From IMG/VR virus record IMGVR_UViG_3300000302_000058: DNA of 20,000 nt; one strand, 5' to 3'. This document shows, piece after piece, positions 2,513 to 15,152 of the stretch. The translations under genes were made by a program, and so were the position numbers. The first letter of the stretch is position 1. Each line of letters starts with the position of its first letter. The notes beneath the pieces were generated by a model. That model searched no databases, was not told the DNA's origin, and saw only the letters and a program-made list of their open reading frames with translations. The DNA comes from an uncultured virus (IMG/VR IMGVR_UViG_3300000302_000058). Its lineage: Duplodnaviria > Heunggongvirae > Uroviricota > Caudoviricetes.

Positions 2513-3997
2513 ATGATTTCTAATCGCTCTGTAGCCACTATTGATAGACCGGAATTTATTGATATTCAACCTTACAATCCTCTTATCTCACAATGTACCA
2601 TCAAGGTGCTTTATCTTGGTAAGAATCGTAACGGTTCTTTTATTGATAAGAATACGGCTATTCAAATGGCTAATTCATTACCGGGCACGCCGATTGTTGG
2701 GGCGTGGCGTAAGGATATCGAAGACTTTGGTGACCACGGCCATGTAATCACTATTGAAGATGGCGAGATTAAGTTTGCTTGCAAGACCGTTCCTTACGGC
2801 TTTGTTGCTCCCGGTGCTCGTGTTTGGTTCCAGAAGTTTAACGATATTGATGATTTTGGAAACGAAACTGAACGTGAATATATGATGACCACTGGCTATC
2901 TATGGACTGGACAGTTCCCAGAAGCTCAGAAGGTTATTGATGAAGGCCAAAATCAATCAATGGAACTAGATGAAGAACATTTGGACGGTCATTGGGCAAA
3001 TGACGCTAAAAGTGGGATGGACTTTTTCATTATCAATGATGCGGTATTCAGTAAACTCTGTATTCTAGGAGACGATGTAGAACCTTGTTTCGAAGGTGCC
3101 TCAGTCTTAGGTGGAGTTGACAACAACTATACAGAAGATACTGAATTCACGCATACATTATATACTATGATTAAACAACTTCAGGATATAATCGGCACCA
3201 CAGAAGGAGGGAAGAATATGCCAAAAAAGCCAGAAGAGTTAGAACAGACTGAGGTAGTCACTGAGTTCGTTGCCGGAAGTGGTAAGGACGAAGAAAAGAA
3301 AGACGAAACTCAGACTGAAACTAAAGATTCCGACGCTGAGAAGGAAGAAACTCCTTCTGAGGAGGAAGCCGAACCTGCGGCAGATGAAGAAAAGAAAGAG
3401 CCTNNNNNNNNNNNNNNNNNNNNNNNNNNNNNNNNNNNNNNNNNNNNNNNNNNNNNNNNNNNNNNNNNNNNNNNNNNNNNNNNNNNNNNNNNNNNTAAAA
3501 AAGAGCACGCTCTAGAAGAGTCTGAGCAGGAAGCTGAGGAAGAAAAGCCCGAAACTGAGCACGCTCTTGAAGAAGAACCTGCGGCTAAGGTTGAACCTGT
3601 TGTAGAACATTCTGCGGCAGAAGATGTTGAACCGGAACCTGCAAAAGTTAACTTTGCTCTTGAAGAGGAGAACAAGGAACTTCGTGCCGAGCTAGAGGCT
3701 CTTCGTCAGTTTAAACTTGATATCGAGAACAAAGAGAAGGATGCTTTGATTGCTAAGTATCATATGCTTAGCGACGAAGACAAGGCGGATATTATTGCTC
3801 ATAAAGAAGAATATACTTTAGAGCAAATTGACGAGAAACTTGCTCTCGTCTACGTCCGCAAGAACGTTGATTTCTCTACTGTTGATGGTCACCAAGAGGA
3901 AGAAGAGAAGATGGATTCCATTCTTTCCTTCTCCCTTGATGATAGTGAGGATGCGGAAGTTGTCAGCGACATTCAAGCTGCATTCCGTGCAATGTAA
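2513..3997 (+). CDS. Prohead maturation protease fused to acidic/coiled-coil scaffold domain
   Basis: The N-terminal ~235 aa carry KVLYLGKNRNGS, GTPIVG, GYLW, QSMEL and LCILGDDVEPCFEGASV motifs typical of caudoviral prohead proteases. The C-terminal half is very Glu-rich, then helical. The frame is preserved across the N gap as given. Confidence 0.75.
   Translation: MISNRSVATIDRPEFIDIQPYNPLISQCTIKVLYLGKNRNGSFIDKNTAIQMANSLPGTPIVGAWRKDIEDFGDHGHVITIEDGEIKFACKTVPYGFVAPGARVWFQKFNDIDDFGNETEREYMMTTGYLWTGQFPEAQKVIDEGQNQSMELDEEHLDGHWANDAKSGMDFFIINDAVFSKLCILGDDVEPCFEGASVLGGVDNNYTEDTEFTHTLYTMIKQLQDIIGTTEGGKNMPKKPEELEQTEVVTEFVAGSGKDEEKKDETQTETKDSDAEKEETPSEEEAEPAADEEKKEPXXXXXXXXXXXXXXXXXXXXXXXXXXXXXXXKKEHALEESEQEAEEEKPETEHALEEEPAAKVEPVVEHSAAEDVEPEPAKVNFALEEENKELRAELEALRQFKLDIENKEKDALIAKYHMLSDEDKADIIAHKEEYTLEQIDEKLALVYVRKNVDFSTVDGHQEEEEKMDSILSFSLDDSEDAEVVSDIQAAFRAM
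2994..3039 (+). promoter_or_regulatory. Candidate late promoter motif, copy 2 (intragenic)
   Basis: GGGCAAAT-gacgc-TAA-N15-TTTCATTATCAATGA, about 180 nt upstream of the internal ATG at 3218. Confidence 0.5.
3218..3997 (+). CDS. Putative nested scaffold protein (in-frame internal start within protease gene)
   Basis: AAGGAGG at 3204-3210, 7 nt before the in-frame ATG 3218 (M236, MPKKPEELE...), exactly where composition switches to acidic low complexity. Confidence 0.6.
   Translation: MPKKPEELEQTEVVTEFVAGSGKDEEKKDETQTETKDSDAEKEETPSEEEAEPAADEEKKEPXXXXXXXXXXXXXXXXXXXXXXXXXXXXXXXKKEHALEESEQEAEEEKPETEHALEEEPAAKVEPVVEHSAAEDVEPEPAKVNFALEEENKELRAELEALRQFKLDIENKEKDALIAKYHMLSDEDKADIIAHKEEYTLEQIDEKLALVYVRKNVDFSTVDGHQEEEEKMDSILSFSLDDSEDAEVVSDIQAAFRAM
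3404..3495. other. Assembly gap (92 N)
   Basis: Run of N inside the repetitive Glu-rich scaffold region; the true length is unknown. Confidence 0.99.
3503..3669 (+). repeat. Degenerate coding repeats in scaffold (EHALEE / EHSAAE / NFALEE)
   Basis: GAGCACGCTCTAGAAGA at 3503 and GAGCACGCTCTTGAAGA at 3557 (54 nt apart); GAACCTGC recurs at 3371, 3575 and 3635. Confidence 0.6.
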
Positions 3998-4027: not shown

Positions 4028-4534
4028 ATGGCAGTATCTATTGCTAAGGCTAACGTTAAAGGCTATCGCCAAGTCGAGCCTAACCATCTAAGTGCTCCAC
4101 GCGACGGTCGCGTTTACGCACAACTTCCCGCAGCCGAAGATATTGAAGTGCTTGAACAGGGCACTTTCGTAAAGTATGACTATGCCAATGGCGAAGTCAA
4201 CTTCACCGGCAAAGGCCCTTGGATGATGGTTTTCAATGAGGAAAAACTATATGACGAGCGTAAGCAGATGCACCGTGATTTCGCTCAGCTTAAAGAGGAT
4301 GATATTCACGGCGTAATCGTTCCTCGTGTATTCGGCATGGTTCCCGGTGATATTTTCACCACTAACAACCTTGCTGATGGTTCCTACAATGTAGGTGACC
4401 TACTTGCTCCCGGTGCTGACGGTATTCTTGCCGCTGGTGGCACCGAGGGTGACGATCTTTGTGTTGAAGTCGTAAAAGAAACCACTATGCCTGACATGCA
4501 GCCTGCTGTCAAGGTTCGTGTTATTTCTGCTTAA
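4028..4534 (+). CDS. Capsid accessory / head decoration (stabilising) protein
   Basis: 168 aa, Gly-rich and beta-like, between scaffold and MCP. Strong RBS AAGGAGG and the same highly biased codon usage as the MCP. Confidence 0.55.
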   Translation: MAVSIAKANVKGYRQVEPNHLSAPRDGRVYAQLPAAEDIEVLEQGTFVKYDYANGEVNFTGKGPWMMVFNEEKLYDERKQMHRDFAQLKEDDIHGVIVPRVFGMVPGDIFTTNNLADGSYNVGDLLAPGADGILAAGGTEGDDLCVEVVKETTMPDMQPAVKVRVISA

Positions 4535-4556
4535 TTGAGGGGAGGTAAATAGTATA

Positions 4557-5591
4557 ATGGAGCTTTTAAAGTTTGATTCTCTTGTAAAGCTTGCTGTTGC
4601 AGCTTCTAACAAGACTTCTTTCAGTTTCTCTGAGAACGAGAAATATTCTGCCGAGCAGACTTCTGACCTACTTCGTGCTCAGATGAATCTTCTTGCCCAC
4701 GATTATCGTTCTTTCCGTGAGAACAAGAACACTATCTTCTCTCTAATCGAGCAGACTATTGACGAGGTTCTTCCTGCTAAGGTTCTACAGCAGTATGAGC
4801 AATTTGCGGATATTAGCACTGTTGCTCAAGGTGATAAGGTTGTATTCGTTCGCCGCATCACCGAAGCTTCTCGTATGCGTGCTAAGCAGTTCGTTACTCA
4901 GGTTGGCCTAGCTGGTCGTTACGAGACATTCATGCTCGACGGCGAGCGTCTTGAGGTCAAGACTAGTGCTATTGGTTCTGCCGCTCGTATCGGCTTCGAA
5001 GAGTTCCTTGATGGTCGTATTCAGTTCTCCGACCTTACCGATGTTATCATCGAAGCTATGGACGAGTACATTTACCGTGAGATTGCCAAGGCTCTTGCCA
5101 CCGCAGTTGAAGAGCTTCCTGCTCCTAACAAGGTAACTGCTTCTACCTTCGACGCTGCTTCTATGGACAGACTTCTTGCTATCGCTGACGCTTATGCTGG
5201 TGCTCCTGCTACAATTTATTGTACTTATGAGTTCGCCGCAACCATGCTTCCTGCTGAGGCTTGGGCTTCTAATGATATGAAGAACACTATTTGGGGCGAA
5301 GGTTATCTACCTCGTTACAAGGGTCACAACATCGTTCTTCTTCCTCAGTCTATGGAAGATGCTACCAACGCTAAGAAAGTAATCGACCCATCTAACGCTT
5401 ACATCATCAACTCTGGTGTTGAGAAGCCTGTCAAGATTGCTTTCGAGGGTCAGACCGCTGTCCGCGAGGTTTCTGACAATGATGACTGGAGCCGTGATAT
5501 GCAGACCTACAAGAAGTTTGGTGTTGCTATTCTAACCAATCCTTCTATCTGCGTATACAAGAACAGCTCCCTTAAGCTAGAGACTGTTTGA
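4557..5591 (+). CDS. Major capsid protein (HK97 fold expected)
   Basis: 344 aa, RBS GGAGGT, strongly biased codons (GCT, CGT, TTC, AAC) indicating high expression, canonical position in the head module. Ends at TGA 5589-5591. Confidence 0.85.
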   Translation: MELLKFDSLVKLAVAASNKTSFSFSENEKYSAEQTSDLLRAQMNLLAHDYRSFRENKNTIFSLIEQTIDEVLPAKVLQQYEQFADISTVAQGDKVVFVRRITEASRMRAKQFVTQVGLAGRYETFMLDGERLEVKTSAIGSAARIGFEEFLDGRIQFSDLTDVIIEAMDEYIYREIAKALATAVEELPAPNKVTASTFDAASMDRLLAIADAYAGAPATIYCTYEFAATMLPAEAWASNDMKNTIWGEGYLPRYKGHNIVLLPQSMEDATNAKKVIDPSNAYIINSGVEKPVKIAFEGQTAVREVSDNDDWSRDMQTYKKFGVAILTNPSICVYKNSSLKLETV

Positions 5592-6248
5592 GAAGAACCA
5601 GACCCAGAGCCAGAACCACCTGAACCAGGGCAAGAAACACACGCTGACGTTGCTAACGTAACTCAGTTGCGTGCAGCTCTGGACAATCCTCAGATTGAGA
5701 CGATTGCTCTAACTGGCAACTTCTCTACTTCTACAACTGTTTCCGTGAATCGTGCGGTAGATATCGACGGTCAAAATCACACTATCACGTTTACTAACAC
5801 TGGTCAGAACTTTGTAGTTGTAGCTAGTGGTACTAACGTACATGATTTAATAATCAAGAATACTGCGGCTGATACTACAGAATGGAATAGCACTTACGCT
5901 ATCCAATTCTACAAGGGCACGTATGACATTCACGATTTGACCGCAACGGGAGCTAATGCTGGTATCCTAATCAATAGCTCTACTGCTACCATCGGTGACA
6001 ATGTAGACGTTTCTGGCAATAACTTCGGAGGAATCGAGGTTTCACAGAGTTCTAGTCCCGACATGCCAGCTTCGCAAGCTACCATCAACTCTGTAATCAC
6101 CAATACTACAGAGGCTTACGGTAAGCCAACGGTTTGGACTGACGGGGAAAACGCCACAGTTATGGATAACACTGGCATGACCGCCAACGGTGAGGTCAAG
6201 GTCGGTCAGGTTCAGTATTACCTAAACGAAGAGAACTCCCACGAGTAG
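5592..6248 (+). CDS. In-frame C-terminal extension of MCP: Pro/Glu linker plus beta-helix (pectate-lyase-like) domain, probably made by TGA readthrough
   Basis: Same frame as MCP and open from the codon after TGA: EEPDPEPEPPEPGQETHADVANVTQLRAALDNPQIETIALTGN... to TAG 6246-6248. No RBS precedes the TTG at 5667 used by the ORF track. Confidence 0.7.
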   Translation, partial: EEPDPEPEPPEPGQETHADVANVTQLRAALDNPQIETIALTGNFSTSTTVSVNRAVDIDGQNHTITFTNTGQNFVVVASGTNVHDLIIKNTAADTTEWNSTYAIQFYKGTYDIHDLTATGANAGILINSSTATIGDNVDVSGNNFGGIEVSQSSSPDMPASQATINSVITNTTEAYGKPTVWTDGENATVMDNTGMTANGEVKVGQVQYYLNEENSHE

Positions 6249-6286
6249 GCTCTAGGTACTGAACATTAAATAGCTTTATTGTAAGG

Positions 6287-6327
6287 ACGGGGAGGGTGAT
6301 ACTAAATCCCCTCCCCGTTTTTATTTT
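6287..6327 (+). terminator. Rho-independent terminator after capsid operon
   Basis: Stem ACGGGGAGGG (6287-6296) / CCCTCCCCGT (6309-6318) followed by TTTTATTTT. Confidence 0.85.
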
Positions 6328-6349
6328 AGGAGAAAAAAGGAGAAAAATT

Positions 6350-6919
6350 ATGGCAGTTATTCGTGTTACTGAGCTTAGTGATACTGACAAAGTTATTATT
6401 CGTAATCTTGTCAATCATCCTGTAGTCATTGTAACCCCAATTCACAAGAAGCGTTTCGACCTTCCGCCCCACGGGGAAATGGAAGTAATGGTCGTAGATG
6501 TGCGGGAATGCTCTTACGACCAAGGTTGTCGTAATATGTTCCGTGATTATGTCCAAATTTGCGACCCAGAACTCGCTAAAGAGTTTGGCGTTTACGAAGA
6601 CGTTGTGGAATATAACTGGGGTGATAAGGAAATCACCGAAGCTCTAACTACTGCTCCAATTGAAGTGCTATTGGATGCTCTTGATTTTGCTCCCGATGGT
6701 ATTAAGGAAGCGATTCTAGACAAAGCTGTTGAACTTGAAATTCCTGATACTCGCCGTCGTGAGGCTATTAGCGAGGCTCTTGGAGTCAATGTTGATAACA
6801 AGATTAAAAACAAGCGTGATTCTCAGACTGGTGCCGAACCAGTTGCAAAGAAGGCTCGCCGTCGTGTTTCTTCCAATAGCTCTGAAACTAAGCAACGCCG
6901 CGTAGCAAAAGCGGAGTAA
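6350..6919 (+). CDS. Hypothetical virion morphogenesis protein
   Basis: ATG 6350 with AAGGAG RBS; the track start at 6296 falls inside the terminator. Basic C-terminal tail; lies directly after the MCP block. Confidence 0.7.
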   Translation: MAVIRVTELSDTDKVIIRNLVNHPVVIVTPIHKKRFDLPPHGEMEVMVVDVRECSYDQGCRNMFRDYVQICDPELAKEFGVYEDVVEYNWGDKEITEALTTAPIEVLLDALDFAPDGIKEAILDKAVELEIPDTRRREAISEALGVNVDNKIKNKRDSQTGAEPVAKKARRRVSSNSSETKQRRVAKAE

Positions 6920-6937: not shown

Positions 6938-7453
6938 ATGCCAGATTGTGCAAATACTCCTGAGTATACTACCTTTCAAGAAGTGTATGATGCCTTTACC
7001 TCTGGTATCACAGATGATATGTTTATGGAAATGACAAAAGAGGATACGGATGAAATTCTTGAAGAATTGCTAATGGCGGCTTTACCTCATTTTGAATTCC
7101 CACGGCAGGATATTTTTAATCTTGATAAATATAATAAAAGATTTAAATGTCTTCTTACTGCCGAAGAAATACGTATCATTCGTTCTTACATGGTAGTAGA
7201 ATGGATTAACTATCAACTTGCTAGTATTGAAAACGTGCGGCAAAAATATAGTGGAAGTGATTTTAGTTTCACTTCACAAGCTTCTCATATGGATAAGCTA
7301 ATTAAACTTCGTGAGACTTATAAAGACGAAGGATTCAAACTACAAAGACTCTACAAACGTCGCCGTAGAGCAGAGGATGGTTCTTACACATCGACTTTCA
7401 GAAAGATTATGTCTAAGCAACCTCGAAAGTTTGGTGACGTGTATGAGCCTTAA
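6938..7453 (+). CDS. Putative head-tail adaptor/connector protein
   Basis: 171 aa, predicted helical, RBS AAGGAGG, neck-gene position. Function inferred from gene order. Confidence 0.5.
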   Translation: MPDCANTPEYTTFQEVYDAFTSGITDDMFMEMTKEDTDEILEELLMAALPHFEFPRQDIFNLDKYNKRFKCLLTAEEIRIIRSYMVVEWINYQLASIENVRQKYSGSDFSFTSQASHMDKLIKLRETYKDEGFKLQRLYKRRRRAEDGSYTSTFRKIMSKQPRKFGDVYEP

Positions 7454-7763
7454 GATTGTTGATATTACTTGTAATAGGAGCGTGGTAGCTGAAAAACTAC
7501 ACAAGCTCACAGGACAAGTATTTCGTTTACTCCCGGCTCGTGAAGAGGGGGAGGATTGGATTAAGCCTCTAGAGACGGTTATTGTAGAGCTATCTGGTTT
7601 GTTTAATTTACTTGATGATTTACAAACTGGATTGACTGTGATTAGTAAGCTTGAAGGTTTGCGGCAACAGGGTGTGGATGTTGAATTTCCTCTTTATCGC
7701 CGCACAATTTTCGAGTGTTGTACTCTTTTATCTAATTTAGAACAGCAAATGCTCGAAGGCTAG
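7443..7763 (+). CDS. Hypothetical protein (neck region)
   Basis: ATG 7443 preceded by GGTGA and overlapping the previous gene's end by 11 nt; 106 aa, helical. The track start at 7311 is unlikely. Confidence 0.65.
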   Translation: MSLKIVDITCNRSVVAEKLHKLTGQVFRLLPAREEGEDWIKPLETVIVELSGLFNLLDDLQTGLTVISKLEGLRQQGVDVEFPLYRRTIFECCTLLSNLEQQMLEG

Positions 7764-7773
7764 GAGGTTTCAA

Positions 7774-8901
7774 ATGTCAATGAAATCCTTAGCTAGTAGG
7801 CTTACCTATGCTGGCGGCGACCAACTTGGCCGCATTAAAATGAACAAATTGCGTTCTTTTAAAGCGGCTTTGAAGAACGATTATCAATCACGTATGATTA
7901 AAGTCCCAAACAAGACAGCTTGGCCTTGTTTGATTAATAATAATACGTCCGGTTTGAAGTCAGACTATGACCGCAAGCGTTTATCCGTTGAATTTGATTC
8001 GGGGCTGCAAAGCGGAGATGTTTTTGAGTGCCTAGATGATGGTACACATTGGATGGTTTATTTGCCGACTTTGACTGAAATTGCTTATCTTCGTACCGAG
8101 ATTATCCGTTGTCGATACACGCTTGATGTAGATGGTCAAGTCTATTGGGTCTATTTCCAAGGGCCAACTGAGACAGATGTTACTTGGTTCCAAAAACAGG
8201 GTGTCCATTACGATGAACCGAATCTTTCTGGTACTATTTATATCAAAAAAGATGAACGTACAAAAGGATTTTTTAGTCGTTTTACCAAAATTCAAATGGA
8301 TGGACACGCTTGGGAAGTGCATATTGTAGACGAGATTTCTGTTCCCGGCATTATTGAACTTGAAGTCCGTGAGTTCTATGATGACCCTCTCGCAGATTTA
8401 CCTGTAGTTGAAAAAGAAGGTTGCCACGAAATTATAGGTCGTGAAAAAGTCGAACAAGATGGTACTTATGGATATATGATTCGTGACGCTTATTTTAATC
8501 CTGAGTTCTCTTGGAGAATTGAAGGTAATCCAAGAGTAGAGATAGAGTCTCAAGAGGGTAAGATGTGCAATGTACTTGTTCATGATGGCGCGATTCGTGG
8601 ATTTAAGCTTGTTTATGGTAATAAGAATTCTGGGTATCATATTGACGTAGCCATTGAACGCGAATGCAATGGTGTTGTGGGGCCAAAGTCTGTTTATCCT
8701 TACGATATTGTAGATTATAAGTCTAACGTGACTGGTACTTATCGACTTTCAGATAATCGAGTCGCTAAGATTATAGAGCGAACCGATACTGGTTGCACAG
8801 TGGAAATCACATCTGGGCGTTCAGGTGATTTTAAGGTTATCTTTGACCCCGCTGATTACGACATGATAATTGAATATCCGGTTCATATTGAGTCATTGTA
8901 A
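7774..8901 (+). CDS. Putative head closure/stopper-like protein with two C-terminal beta-sandwich repeats
   Basis: 375 aa, RBS AGGAGG, beta-rich N-terminal part (LQSGDVF...WMVY), neck position, duplicated ~80-aa C-terminal unit. Confidence 0.45.
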   Translation: MSMKSLASRLTYAGGDQLGRIKMNKLRSFKAALKNDYQSRMIKVPNKTAWPCLINNNTSGLKSDYDRKRLSVEFDSGLQSGDVFECLDDGTHWMVYLPTLTEIAYLRTEIIRCRYTLDVDGQVYWVYFQGPTETDVTWFQKQGVHYDEPNLSGTIYIKKDERTKGFFSRFTKIQMDGHAWEVHIVDEISVPGIIELEVREFYDDPLADLPVVEKEGCHEIIGREKVEQDGTYGYMIRDAYFNPEFSWRIEGNPRVEIESQEGKMCNVLVHDGAIRGFKLVYGNKNSGYHIDVAIERECNGVVGPKSVYPYDIVDYKSNVTGTYRLSDNRVAKIIERTDTGCTVEITSGRSGDFKVIFDPADYDMIIEYPVHIESL

Positions 8902-8911
8902 GGGAGGAAGA

Positions 8912-9505
8912 ATGATTAGACGGGCACCCGTTCTTGAAACTAATTACAAGTCAAGCTTCTTCTCTTATGAAAAGAATCTTGAATTGATTGTTAAGAAACT
9001 TTTTGTAGACAATCCTGCATACGCGGAGAATCTTAAACGTCTTTTGGTTATTAATAAACCAGACTGTCTTGCGACTGGGAATGAAGCTTATAATGAATTA
9101 ATTAAAGGTTACAGCGTAGGGCGGTTGAAGAAAGAAGGATATGTCCGTACAGTTCCGCGTCTTGACCTAAAGGAACATGCAGATATTAAATCGTATATTA
9201 TTATTATGATGGATGATTTTACCCCTACTTCAAATGATAAATATCGAGATTGTACTATTACGTTTTTTATCTTTTCTGAATATGACTATGCAGAGATGGA
9301 TAATTACGAATATCGCCCCATAAAGATTGCTGGATACATTGATGGTATTATGAGAGATGCTAAGCTTGCGGGAATCGGCAAATTACAATTCCTTGGAGCA
9401 CAGCAAGTTCCGCTGAATGAATATTGGGGTGGAATGGCCTTGATGTATGTTACGACACACGGAGAAGAAGAGGATTCAAGTCCTAACATTAACGAAGCGT
9501 CGTGA
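8912..9505 (+). CDS. Putative tail terminator / tail completion protein
   Basis: ATG 8912 with GGGAGG RBS; alpha/beta pattern (ITFFIF...RPIKIAGYIDGIM...GIGKLQF); upstream of the tail tube gene. Ends TGA-TAA. Confidence 0.45.
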   Translation: MIRRAPVLETNYKSSFFSYEKNLELIVKKLFVDNPAYAENLKRLLVINKPDCLATGNEAYNELIKGYSVGRLKKEGYVRTVPRLDLKEHADIKSYIIIMMDDFTPTSNDKYRDCTITFFIFSEYDYAEMDNYEYRPIKIAGYIDGIMRDAKLAGIGKLQFLGAQQVPLNEYWGGMALMYVTTHGEEEDSSPNINEAS

Positions 9506-11893: not shown

Positions 11894-13522
11894 GTGCTAG
11901 GAGGATTACCAAGTTATTATCACTATTCTTGGGAAGGGGCTTCAGAAGAACCGTTAGTTCAATCTGTTCAATCTCTTTTAGCCAATAGCAAAGATACCAT
12001 TTTATCTAACTATATAGGACGGTATAATGAAGCGTTCAATCTTTTCCAAGAGCAATCAGGTATATCATTAAGTGATGAACAAAGCGCAGTTCTTGATTTT
12101 GCGGCGGAGGAAACGTTAACTTCGCAAGATTTGGAAGCTGCTTTATCTTCTGCCATGAATCAAGCCCCGATTTCTGGTACTGATGTGGGTGGAGGAATGG
12201 GGCTTATTGCGGCTATTCAAGCACTAAATCAAAAAGTAACTGTAACGAATAAAACTTTAACTAATCTTAGCGCTTTAATGGATGCTTTTACAAACGCTAC
12301 CGATTTATATAAGCAAGTAGAAGATTCTATTGTCGCCCAAGGCGGAAACCTACGTTCTAAGGCTAGAGCTAAGTCTACCGTCGTGCGGCAAGTCGTTCAG
12401 AATATATTAAATCATCCAAATGGTTCTAAATGGAATCGTAGTTCTCAAGGATATATTAATGGCATTTCTGGTCTTAGTCAACGACTAAATCAATGGTTAG
12501 TTTTATTGTATGCTTTGACTACTAATCGTGTTCCGAGAGGTAGTAAAACTGCGGTCAAGGCCGCAATCATTCAGACTGTAAAAAATGATATGAACGGATT
12601 AGTAACTGCTCTTGGTAATGTTGGTACTAGAATAGCTTCTGCTGTTGCTACAATACAGTTCATTGAAACTTTAAATAGCCAAATAGATGTAAGTAAATTG
12701 AAAGTTAGCGCGCATACAAGTGGCGGTTTTATTGGACATACTATCAAAATAGAGAATAATGGTGCGACCCAGAGCTTATTAAATAACGTAAAATCAGAGC
12801 TAGCCGCTTTAGGTGGAGTGCAAGGCGGAATGGGAGATAAATTAAGTGTCAAATTGCCAAAAGCAAACGTGCAAGCTAATCAGCAAACATGGTCTGATAC
12901 ATTAGATGCGAATATTAATAATGTTACAGTTAAACCAACAACTAGTGTACGGACGTTGAGCAACGGAAGTCAGCGAATTGGTAGTATTACTGTGCAGCGT
13001 TCGACTTCTATGTTATCTTTGCTGAGGCAAGAATTGAATCTTAGTTCAAATAATGTCATAGGCTTATTGCAGTTAGCAATGGCACAGAACAGTTCTGAAC
13101 CAGATTCAACTTGGAATGATTTGCGGGAATATACCAAAAAGGCATTGTTGATTCCTGCTTTAACTGGTTTAGGTACTGCCGATTTTTCTAATATGAACTT
13201 AGCTACGATGATTAAGATAAATGATTATATCATTCCTATGCCGCAATTCTTAAATTATTTACAAGCGGCTTTAACTCGTCAAGCTGACGTGTTAGGAGAG
13301 TCATTTACTGGGTATATATCATTAGAGGGCTTCCCTAACAGGGGTGCTTTTACTAAGATTAATGCTTGGCAATCTCCCGCACAAAACAACTGGATTGCTG
13401 CACATCGTCGTTCTAGGCTTGCTTCATCAGAAGGTAAAGGACTATTACAATCTACTAAACTAAGAATGAGATTGAGAAATTTAAATTTGACGATGTTAAT
13501 CAAAGCTGGTTCTATCATTTAA
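11894..13522 (+). CDS. Hypothetical protein (542 aa, tail region)
   Basis: GTG start with strong RBS AAGGAGGTGA; long ORF rich in S/N/Q/T/L/A; no family recognised. Confidence 0.75.
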   Translation: MLGGLPSYYHYSWEGASEEPLVQSVQSLLANSKDTILSNYIGRYNEAFNLFQEQSGISLSDEQSAVLDFAAEETLTSQDLEAALSSAMNQAPISGTDVGGGMGLIAAIQALNQKVTVTNKTLTNLSALMDAFTNATDLYKQVEDSIVAQGGNLRSKARAKSTVVRQVVQNILNHPNGSKWNRSSQGYINGISGLSQRLNQWLVLLYALTTNRVPRGSKTAVKAAIIQTVKNDMNGLVTALGNVGTRIASAVATIQFIETLNSQIDVSKLKVSAHTSGGFIGHTIKIENNGATQSLLNNVKSELAALGGVQGGMGDKLSVKLPKANVQANQQTWSDTLDANINNVTVKPTTSVRTLSNGSQRIGSITVQRSTSMLSLLRQELNLSSNNVIGLLQLAMAQNSSEPDSTWNDLREYTKKALLIPALTGLGTADFSNMNLATMIKINDYIIPMPQFLNYLQAALTRQADVLGESFTGYISLEGFPNRGAFTKINAWQSPAQNNWIAAHRRSRLASSEGKGLLQSTKLRMRLRNLNLTMLIKAGSII

Positions 13523-14146: not shown

Positions 14147-14164
14147 GTAGGGACTTTTTTATTT
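14126..14164 (+). terminator. Rho-independent terminator-like hairpin
   Basis: CCCTACTTTCA / TGAGAGTAGGG stem (one G-U pair) followed by ACTTTTTTATTT. Confidence 0.65.
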
Positions 14165-14183
14165 AGACTTAAAAGGAGTGATT

Positions 14184-15152
14184 ATGGGAAGAAGAATAAG
14201 GTATCTGTTAGGAGATGAAATTGGCACTAAAGGATGCCGATTCTTCTATGAAATAGAGCCGAGACGCAGTGGTAAAACGCAACAGGCGGTGCGTCAAGCT
14301 TATTTTAAATGCCCTCAGTGTGGTGCTAAATTTTTAGCAGATATAGGTGCTGTGCGAAAAGATTTGATGTGGCGTTGTAAAGAATGCACAAATAAAGCTA
14401 AAGGCTTGTCTCGTAAATTTCAATACGAAGTTGGAGATTATATAGACGCACAACATAATTTTATATATCTAGGAGAATATCAAGATAATACTTGTAATCG
14501 AAAAGTTACTGTAAAAGATATTCGAACCGGAGAGGTTTTTTCTACTTTTTTAAGTGGATTAAAAACAGGTAGGACTAAATATGCCCTTAGTATGTCTAAA
14601 AAAGAAGGTGGATTAAAAAATCAAAAGTACCATGTTGGAGACATAATAAACGGGGTTTTATTTGAACAAGAATTAGATAGATATATCACACCGAATGGGC
14701 AGGTTAAAAGGGTTGGTCTATTTAAAAATTTAGAAACTGATAAAGAGTTTATATGCTGGATTAATAGTGTCATTTACGGACATAGCTTAGGACTAGAAAA
14801 CGAGTCTTTAGGAGAGAATACTATTCGCAGATGGCTAGAAGAACACAATATATATTTTCAGCAAGAATATTCTTTTGAAAATTTAATTTCAGAACGTGGT
14901 AAAAAATTACGTTTTGATTTTTTCATACCTGCTATGAATTTATTAATTGAATATGATGGTATTCAACATTTCGAGAATACTTTTAGACTACCGGAGGAAG
15001 AGTATCAATATAGACTTTCTCTAGATAAATTAAAGGATAATTATGCTAAAGAGCATAATTATACTTTAATAAGAATTGGATACTCAGATTTCTCTGATAT
15101 ATCCATTATTTTATCGAAGAAAGTAGGTGAAGCTCTTGAGCAAATTCAGTAA
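14184..15152 (+). CDS. Putative free-standing homing endonuclease: repeated N-terminal domains (CxxC zinc ribbon) plus C-terminal PD-(D/E)xK nuclease
   Basis: ATG 14184 after AAGGAG; contains CPQC...CKEC. C-terminal SLGENTI, QEYSFENL, LRFDFFI, LIEYDGIQHF, DKLKDNY and LIRIGY motifs. AT-rich codons (AGA, ATA, TTA) unlike the structural genes. Confidence 0.75.
   Translation: MGRRIRYLLGDEIGTKGCRFFYEIEPRRSGKTQQAVRQAYFKCPQCGAKFLADIGAVRKDLMWRCKECTNKAKGLSRKFQYEVGDYIDAQHNFIYLGEYQDNTCNRKVTVKDIRTGEVFSTFLSGLKTGRTKYALSMSKKEGGLKNQKYHVGDIINGVLFEQELDRYITPNGQVKRVGLFKNLETDKEFICWINSVIYGHSLGLENESLGENTIRRWLEEHNIYFQQEYSFENLISERGKKLRFDFFIPAMNLLIEYDGIQHFENTFRLPEEEYQYRLSLDKLKDNYAKEHNYTLIRIGYSDFSDISIILSKKVGEALEQIQ

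Follow-up and report, generated by a model that had tools for sequence, protein, structure and literature searches.

In the RNA phage Q-beta, the UGA closing the coat gene is leaky, and the readthrough product A1 carries an in-frame extension without a start of its own and makes up a small share of the capsid subunits. Readthrough of the coat stop in luteoviruses and poleroviruses likewise adds a projecting domain to some of the subunits (CP-RTD), and such extension of the coat protein, described for luteoviruses and other RNA viruses, supplies a domain that mediates interaction with the environment (PMC3542737). In tailed phages, capsid extensions made by frameshifting are reported for T3, T7 (10A/10B), Lactobacillus A2 and Listeria PSA, A118 and A500, where one gene yields two capsid products and the longer is a minority form with a C-terminal surface domain (PMC5009743). 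Here, we describe a locus of an uncultured Caudoviricetes phage (IMG/VR record IMGVR_UViG_3300000302_000058; the 20,000 nucleotides analyzed are called the window) in which the major capsid protein gene ends in TGA and is followed, in the same frame, by a Pro/Glu-rich linker and a predicted beta-helix domain. Judged from sequence, UGA readthrough of the capsid gene would give a minor 563-aa (amino acid) subunit bearing the beta-helix, a reading to which we assign a probability of about 0.78.

The locus differs from each of these systems. Q-beta is a small single-stranded RNA phage with an unrelated coat fold and no homology, whereas here an HK97-fold shell belongs to a tailed phage with a double-stranded DNA genome of ~140 kb, and the added domain is a beta-helix behind a Pro/Glu linker. 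The CP-RTD viruses are eukaryotic RNA viruses that read through UAG or UGA in defined 3' contexts with long-range RNA pairing, and no such signal is seen here. The frameshift phages, which are also tailed double-stranded DNA phages, shift by -1 or +1 at slippery sites and often carry Ig-like cargo; the present cargo is a beta-helix, and a frameshift-type extension such as T7 10B does not fit because the extension lies in the zero frame right behind the stop. No description of readthrough in a tailed-phage capsid gene was found in open-access papers or preprints.

A capsid gene followed in frame by a second coding region

The features of the locus are as follows.

4537-4545, + strand: ribosome-binding site (RBS) of the capsid gene, GAGGGGAGG, read directly from the sequence
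4557-5588, + strand: major capsid protein, 344 aa, 38.4 kDa, HK97 fold (phrog_4088, E 4.9e-63)
5589-5591, + strand: in-frame UGA, the proposed leaky gate, context U-UGA-G
5592-5639, + strand: Pro/Glu-rich linker, EEPDPEPEPPEPGQET, predicted to be disordered (predicted local distance difference test, pLDDT, 54-57 in the fusion model)
5640-6245, + strand: predicted right-handed parallel beta-helix, PF20585 (pectate-lyase-like adhesive domain)
5667-5669, + strand: TTG, the only early candidate start, rejected; within the first helix of the fold
6246-6248, + strand: TAG closing the extended reading frame
6287-6328, + strand: intrinsic-terminator-like hairpin and T-run closing the capsid transcription unit (fold of 6280-6332, -29.4 kcal/mol)

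The capsid gene ends GAG ACT GTT TGA, and past this TGA its frame stays open for 218 more codons, to the TAG, as a first-pass annotation made from the sequence alone had described. Translation through the stop would give a product of 563 aa and 61.7 kDa with the junction peptide ...LETV-X-EEPDPEPEPPEPGQETHADVANVTQLR. The 344-aa protein has tblastn matches in SPbeta-like Bacillus, Enterococcus and Lactococcus phages and in gut phages, some of which are recorded as major capsid proteins; identity is highest to an unannotated faecal contig (56.5%) and to phAss-1 (51.3%). The read-through product was modelled with AlphaFold from a 77-row alignment (mean pLDDT 82.5), and a Foldseek search with the capsid part of the model returned encapsulins, HK97 and other phage capsids (E ~2e-6, probability 1.0), in agreement with an HK97 fold. 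The gene also sits in a portal-scaffold-capsid gene order.

Strong ribosome-binding sites precede the capsid gene and the gene following the extension (AGGAG repeats before ATG 6350), and the capsid motif recurs 5' of the capsid ATG in three relatives (L004, L007 and L127). The linker was said to have neither a start codon nor an RBS, and this held: the first in-frame ATG, GTG or TTG past the stop is TTG 5667, extension codon 26, and no GGAG, GAGG, AGGA or GGGG occurs in 5541-5680. Likewise, a strong terminator, a hairpin with a T-run in 6280-6332, occurs only 3' of the extension, with none directly 3' of the capsid TGA. The hairpin came from direct folding; a simple terminator scan missed it, probably because its loop is long.

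Besides the capsid gene and its extension, TGA splits no long same-frame pair in the window, whose 17 closed long + strand frames stop at TAA (11), TAG (4) or TGA (2). The other TGA stop (9503-9505) ends a gene for a virion structural protein (8870-9505), with a TAA immediately next to it as a tandem stop. The same tandem stop is present in G001, a 143.6-kb record with terminal repeats, rated complete, to part of which the window is ~93% identical in nucleotide sequence.

Relatives carrying the extension

A scan of IMG/VR with the capsid protein gave 244 relatives, 80 of which were kept. Two of them, L004 (capsid 99% identical) and L007 (86%), have the TGA and then an in-frame extension of 212 codons. 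When metagenomes were scanned with an alignment of the extension, 31 loci were obtained. In eight of these (L127-L134; capsid identities, in order, 99.7, 98.5, 86, 93, 59, 64, 58 and 63%) the domain lies behind a capsid homologue, each time with an in-frame TGA gate; in the other 23 it lies within large self-started proteins, or the locus is cut. No capsid homologue was found beside these 23 loci (L135-L157) or beside L086. A second IMG/VR scan, with a 591-aa database protein as query, gave 34 loci, including nine further ones with TGA and 212-224 codons. Other cargoes follow different Pro-rich linkers: L190 has TGA and 314 codons, and L194 and the cut locus L195 have TGA and 319 codons. Matches of this cargo type to Beta_helix PF13229 score 31.3 bits (above the cut-off of 25.9) and 17.1 bits (below it).

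Collapsed at >=99% nucleotide identity, the 24 extension-bearing loci form 17 clusters, with TGA as the gate in 15 and TAG in 2. In all 17, capsid gene, stop, Pro-rich linker and cargo stand in one frame, and, as in the window, the stop is followed by a long in-frame open reading frame (ORF) without a start or RBS of its own. Past the gate the frame is open for 212-570 codons across all lineages. Every linker begins no more than a few codons past the stop, and the length differences between linkers are whole codons only; the linkers read EEPDPEPEPPEPGQE, TEPDPEPEPD, DNQTPEPEPPEPEPT, EVPVPDPEPPE, GNGGTDPEPGPDDPSE, TDPVPEPDPED, TEPVPEPEPEPEPED, SDPVPPSPEPEPP..., ENPVPPTLDPTP... and DDPSPDDPTPEPPEPEP.... 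Capsid identity to the window reaches down to 55% among the nine bearers in one alignment (A3). The TGA with its in-frame linker, noticed by the first-pass annotation in a single sequence, is conserved in relatives with capsid identities of only 55-64%.

Some of these loci deserve separate description. In L187 and L188 the capsid stop is TAG (3554-3556), followed by a Pro-rich linker (DDPSPDDPTPEPPEPEP) and 431 codons to 4849; Pfam gives no match for this cargo. TAA closes the remaining six long frames of the L187 locus, where no sign of recoding is seen. The TGA-gated extension of L134 (2486-4195) has 570 codons, the first ~230 of which align to the window domain at 45% aa identity; Pfam gave nothing on the whole L134 extension at E up to 0.001. 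L173, L176 and L177 are TGA-recoded, with neighbouring genes that merge only when TGA is read as sense. In these three the capsid gene ends in TAG (3596, 3788 and 3566), and an in-frame peptide of 22-28 codons ending ...PDSLFLDP runs from there to a second TAG, which may be a short gated tail.

Neither megablast of 4400-6400 nor tblastn of the extension found a match among 50,697 phage records, so the phage genomes deposited in that collection do not have the arrangement. Over residues 250-344, the capsid protein of the window has counterparts of 99-100% identity, encoded in ENA, Logan and JGI data by numerous distinct contigs of ~140 kb, and contigs from chicken-gut runs of several studies carry part of the stretch.

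The TGA is present in independent data

Assembly error does not account for the TGA. When 5.8 billion proteins were searched with the junction (read-through residues 250-450), 1235 hits were returned, the best 120 of which are all 344 aa long and contain the capsid part only, on contigs of up to ~145 kb. No sense-codon form of the gate is among these best 120 of 1235, where a closely related fusion would rank first. Two contigs from chicken gut cover 5200-6300 without an indel, one with 20 differences and the other with 34, and none of the 40 differences listed falls at 5589-5591 (22 further ones lie outside this list). One contig from an RNA library also spans the stop (5387-5780), possibly through DNA carry-over.

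When proteins of 309-986 aa were searched with the extension, 43 hits were obtained, and only P0132 (591 aa) pairs the PF27364 capsid family with PF20585. Its cluster at 90% identity has 47 members, 40 of which were read and 15 listed. Among the members listed, eleven are 348 aa long and end ...ETRA (P0165 and P0171 included), and four are 591 aa long (P0132, P0166, P0170 and P0178). These fused calls are weighed below.

The linker and the predicted fold of the extension

In the fusion model, the linker comprises 16 residues (345-360 of the read-through product, pLDDT about 55), and the C-terminal domain is modelled at pLDDT 93-98. Modelled alone, the extension gives a short right-handed parallel beta-helix (pLDDT 92.9, predicted template modelling score 0.87), and the predicted structure superposes on solved beta-helices. 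Foldseek matches of this model are of the same kind but weak. The fold expected by the first-pass annotation was recovered as a right-handed beta-helix. PF20585 (Pectate_lyase_5) matches the window extension at 34.6 bits against a gathering threshold of 24.3, and scores 50.3 bits in L164 and 45.9 bits in L166.

The modelled fold begins at extension residue 17, with a first strand at 17-20 and a first helix at 23-31 (pLDDT 80-98), and the Pfam match begins at residue 18. Thus TTG 5667 lies inside the folded domain, as had been claimed, and by the model the beta-helix domain needs codons upstream of this TTG.

In other phages the PF20585 domain is an internal module of proteins of ~200 to >1000 codons (928 aa in L086). 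Similar folds are known from the binding region of the serine-rich repeat adhesin of Lactobacillus reuteri (PDB 5nxk) and from tailspike beta-helices; the present domain is shorter (~200 aa) and is attached to a capsid protein, and likeness of fold is no proof of like function. The domain is probably glycan-binding or glycan-cutting.

Start codons and selection on the extension

TTG 5667 was rejected as a start: it lies inside the first helix of the fold, no Shine-Dalgarno-like 4-mer is near it, and the codon is not conserved, being CTA in L004 and L007 and TTA in L127. A TTG at codon 25 of the relatives is, in turn, CTG in the window. The first canonical in-frame start is at codon 47 in L127, at codons 46-49 in L131, L166 and L169, at codon 66 in L134 and at codon 68 in L187.

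Selection was measured as the ratio of non-synonymous to synonymous substitution rates (dN/dS) by the method of Nei and Gojobori. In the extension, dN/dS is 0.084 between the window and L004 (dS 1.09), 0.079 between the window and L007 and 0.055 between L004 and L007, with dS of 0.5-1.3 overall. In the first 30 aligned columns, before any start, the same three pairs give 0.075, 0.098 and 0.155, values that rest on small counts (9.5 synonymous versus 3.5-4.5 non-synonymous changes in the window pairs, and 2 versus 1 in L004-L007). Seven further pairs were computable, and six of them give 0.073-0.137: L187-L188, L164-L166 and L164-L165 (0.073 each), L131-L164 (0.081), L169-L132 (0.096) and L131-L132 (0.137); the value for the seventh, L190-L194, is 0.206. 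When the window is compared with L130, L131 or L134, dS is saturated. By these comparisons the extension is under purifying selection, the codons ahead of any possible start included.

These results bear on the possibility that the beta-helix is made separately, by unconventional initiation or by termination-reinitiation, and then joins the capsid as a free decoration protein. Decoration proteins are often encoded just downstream of capsid genes, and candidate starts exist, namely the TTG at codon 26 in the window and a GTG at codon 4 in L190 and L194. No start is conserved in position or preceded by an RBS, however, and the first canonical starts of six lineages (codons 46-68) lie inside the fold. 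Furthermore, purifying selection acts on the codons ahead of every candidate start, and indels there keep the frame; the frame of a separate protein need not match that of the capsid, yet it does so in 17/17 clusters. We regard separate translation as quite unlikely.

A dead remnant, that is, an ancestral fusion cut by a nonsense mutation whose downstream part is no longer made, would need one point mutation to produce the TGA, and the 591-aa fused calls could be taken for the uncut form. Such a remnant would not be expected to keep a dN/dS of 0.055-0.21 at dS up to saturation, a frame open for 212-570 codons everywhere, in-frame linker indels and a terminator only past the extension. True losses look different, being clean deletions with a switch to TAA or TAG. 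Decay of this kind is very unlikely.

These losses were placed on a neighbour-joining tree of 61 capsid proteins (Biopython, midpoint-rooted, without support values). All nine bearers then known fall in one clade, which also holds L059. L005 and L006 (capsid 90% identical), which are without the extension, are nested in the window's group; their capsid genes end in TAA with the window's terminator hairpin directly behind. L059, also without the extension, ends in TAG. Among 52 capsid genes without the extension, the stop is TAA in 42, TAG in 5 and TGA in 5, and among the clusters with it TGA is found in 15, TAG in 2 and TAA never. By this comparison, TGA is not kept where the extension has been lost.

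Genetic code and tRNAs

Gut phages with the same capsid family, such as phAss-1, include lineages in which stop codons are reassigned: in code 15 TAG is read as Gln, and in code 4 TGA is read as Trp. Relatives have tRNAs with CTA or TCA anticodons and many in-frame stops, unlike the lineage of the window, which has a single in-frame stop, normal TGA use elsewhere and no suppressor tRNA. phAss-1 and its relatives are described as TAG-recoded, with suppressor tRNAs and a probable Clostridia host; in the main text of that paper "readthrough" does not occur and "TGA" occurs once (PMC10607447).

Across 6393 codons of the window, TGG occurs 45 times and TGA just once in frame. G001 was read for long TGA-split pairs with recognisably coding sequence on both sides and no start just past the stop; judged by eye from the translations, the capsid pair alone is of this kind. 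TGA terminates ~22 of 183 crude ORFs of G001, some of which are followed by 45-67 open codons. Elsewhere in G001 (125364-125744, in L125), the TGA of a 126-aa ORF has 121 open codons behind it in frame, possibly a second gated pair or chance.

In seven extension-bearing genomes, ARAGORN counts 25 tRNAs in G001, 20 in G002, 10 in G008, 18 in G009, 6 in G010, 12 in G011 and 3 in G012, and none of the seven has a tRNA with a TCA, CTA or TTA anticodon; the absence of a TCA-anticodon tRNA was among the checks proposed with the original annotation. Extra low-scoring Infernal hits, examined with relaxed ARAGORN settings or by inspection of the anticodon loop, have GTA, GCA, CAT, TAC, TGT or TGA anticodons. 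Suppressor tRNAs were found in three of five relatives without the extension (CTA and TCA in G004, CTA in G005 and TCA in G006; none in G003 or G007). These genes lie at L159 (G004), L160 (G005) and L161 (G006), and G006 also has a transfer-messenger RNA-like gene (L161 987-1411). Stops inside the capsid gene occur in L016, L069 and L071 (TGA) and in L052, L053 and L076 (TAG). For the window's lineage, genome-wide recoding is unlikely, because the seven genomes have no UCA-anticodon tRNA and TGA is an ordinary stop in G001. The single TGA pair in the 143.6 kb of G001 and the 0/7 suppressor tRNAs do not fit genome-wide reassignment under code 4 or 15.

Overexpression of tRNA-Trp(CCA), and some of its variants, raises UGA readthrough in E. 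coli (PMC13092985). The phage tRNA-Trp(CCA) was considered as a special UGA decoder and rejected: it is present in only 3/7 bearers and missing from the complete G009. The tRNA-Trp(CCA) of G001 and G002 has an ordinary anticodon stem of 5 bp, and the U11-A24 pair with G or C at position 9 also occurs in G004 and G006, which have no extension. Since it is found in 3/7 bearers and its features are shared with non-bearers, this tRNA is neither specific nor required.

The UGA could instead be decoded almost constitutively, through a host suppressor tRNA, poor UGA termination in the host or the tRNA of a co-infecting relative, so that most or all subunits would carry the beta-helix. The wider family is indeed rich in stop reassignment, with the six capsid genes with internal stops and the suppressor tRNAs of G004, G005 and G006 noted above; phAss-1 is filed under a code-15 clade (PMC10607447), and one protein cluster has the 591-aa fused calls. 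On the other hand, no cognate suppressor tRNA is present in 7/7 bearers, TGA ends ~22 of 183 ORFs in G001, and there is no second in-frame TGA in the 6393 codons of the window. For constitutive fusion a sense codon would suffice, yet none is found among the best 120 of 1235 junction hits, and the gate of the TGA-recoded relatives is TAG, which is still their stop. Near-constitutive decoding thus appears unlikely.

Proposed mechanism

The comparative evidence strongly favours stop-codon readthrough, and the proposal of a leaky UGA giving a minor 563-aa form that displays a beta-helix is supported computationally. Since the domain is always in frame and has no start of its own, a small share of the shell subunits probably carries it. 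One mRNA would give two products. Most ribosomes would stop at UGA 5589-5591 and release the 344-aa protein, and a minority would decode the UGA with a near-cognate host tRNA and translate on to TAG 6246 in the same frame. In bacteria, UGA readthrough usually inserts tryptophan. In the 563-aa subunit, the disordered Pro/Glu linker would tether the beta-helix of ~200 residues to the capsid C-terminus. Extended subunits would co-assemble into the shell and place a few to some tens of outward beta-helix domains on each head, where they could bind, and possibly cut, polysaccharide of the host surface or of gut mucus. The head of a phage with a ~140-kb genome has a T number of 13-16 and some 800-950 subunits, and therefore readthrough at ~1% would give several domains per head. 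We infer the readthrough, its rate, the inserted residue, the exposure on the outside and the ligand from sequence; by analogy with T7-type display, the capsid C-terminus would be exposed on the outside.

Selenocysteine inserted at the UGA under the direction of a downstream selenocysteine insertion sequence (SECIS) was also considered. UGA is its codon, and Clostridia are proposed as hosts of the related phAss-1 (PMC10607447). Near the stop, Rfam gave no match at E up to 10, although no dedicated search for a bacterial SECIS was made. The sequence after the stop differs between lineages, two clusters have TAG, and selenocysteine would have no obvious use in a disordered linker. Selenoproteins are common in Clostridia, but selenocysteine here is extremely unlikely.

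For readthrough of the capsid UGA, the simplest reading is low-rate near-cognate decoding by the host translation apparatus, giving a fixed minor share of extended subunits. Around the stop, only U at -1 (16/17 clusters) and a purine at +4 (16/17) recur; the context is TGA-ACT in L004, L007 and L127.

Several observations speak against this reading or narrow it. The gate is TAG rather than TGA in 2/17 clusters. Of the 17 clusters, 10 have G directly 3' of the stop, 6 have A and 1 has T, and the other TGA stops of G001 are followed by the same range of bases. The sole predicted downstream hairpin, ~50 nucleotides past the stop, is weak (z -2.2; 1/26 compensatory pairs). Because no conserved stimulatory signal is seen, "programmed" may mean merely basal leakiness kept by selection. 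The tRNA scan covers the genomes of seven relatives, three rated 100% complete and four 67-91%. Finally, the 591-aa forms read ...ETRA-Q-IDPVPDPEPEPP..., later ...GQ-Q-LEPT..., and then a junk-like tail, and it is possible that they are a true sense-codon, constitutive variant. In relatives, a TAG closes the extension at the position matching the second Q, which suggests that both Q are TAG translated under code 15 by the gene caller. The DNA of these calls was not found in IMG/VR, where the best match is 80% identical. The calls probably reflect a gene caller choosing code 15 on short contigs.

Other genes of the window

The window is a phage structural module with portal, head, scaffold-like, capsid, connector and tail, and tape-measure genes. 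Apart from the capsid locus, the following features were placed.

902-2497: portal gene (phrog_2739), upstream of the capsid gene
between the portal and capsid genes: gene of a 494-aa head protein, then gene of a 168-aa scaffold-like protein
15127 to the window end: tape-measure gene
513-887 and 14178-15149: two HNH homing-endonuclease genes within the structural module

Four codons past the TAG of the portal gene (2498-2500), the gene of the 494-aa protein begins in the same frame (ATG 2513), in G001 as well; this is probably ordinary tight spacing. The ORFs 6938-7453 and 7311-7763 overlap by 143 nucleotides in different frames, and the PHROG match of the second begins at its residue 53, so that the second ORF either starts more to the 3' side or is joined to the first by a frameshift. 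Two segments, 11897-13519 (a 542-aa ORF without a PHROG match) and 14161-15141, are unmatched at the nucleotide level in G001 and by this comparison are variable or inserted parts.

Discussion

Minor extended capsid proteins made by frameshifting are known from tailed phages, and coat-protein readthrough is known from RNA viruses (Q-beta, luteovirids). The new part would be a readthrough-type coat extension in a large double-stranded DNA tailed phage, with a beta-helix as cargo and a modular, family-wide socket. If true, the readthrough route to capsid extension joins the biology of tailed phages. A head-borne glycan-binding beta-helix could serve first contact with a capsule or adherence to mucus. 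The predicted 62-kDa product escapes present annotation, and on such contigs a gene caller may change to the wrong genetic code.

What the relatives add to the first-pass annotation is a modular arrangement across the family, with several cargoes and, in a few lineages, a TAG gate. Behind the gate stand the PF20585 beta-helix of 212-224 codons, its 570-codon version, beta-helices of 314 and 319 codons and, behind TAG, a 431-codon domain without a Pfam match. It is tempting, though still tentative, to see here a stop-gated capsid display in abundant gut siphophages of ~95-145 kb, with swappable cargoes, a gate matched to the phage's own code and a dose set by translation. The socket, a leaky stop with a Pro/Glu-Asp linker, would offer phage engineering a model from nature for display at a limited dose.

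If this modular interpretation is true, the gate would be the codon that the phage's own code keeps as a stop, UGA under the standard code and UAG in the TGA-recoded lineages and a few others. The number of decorated subunits per head would then follow the state of translation, including the suppressor tRNAs of co-infecting recoded phages. Changes of genetic code in this family would thereby be linked to the composition of the virion surface, which ties into the question of why stop-codon recoding is so frequent among phages with this capsid.

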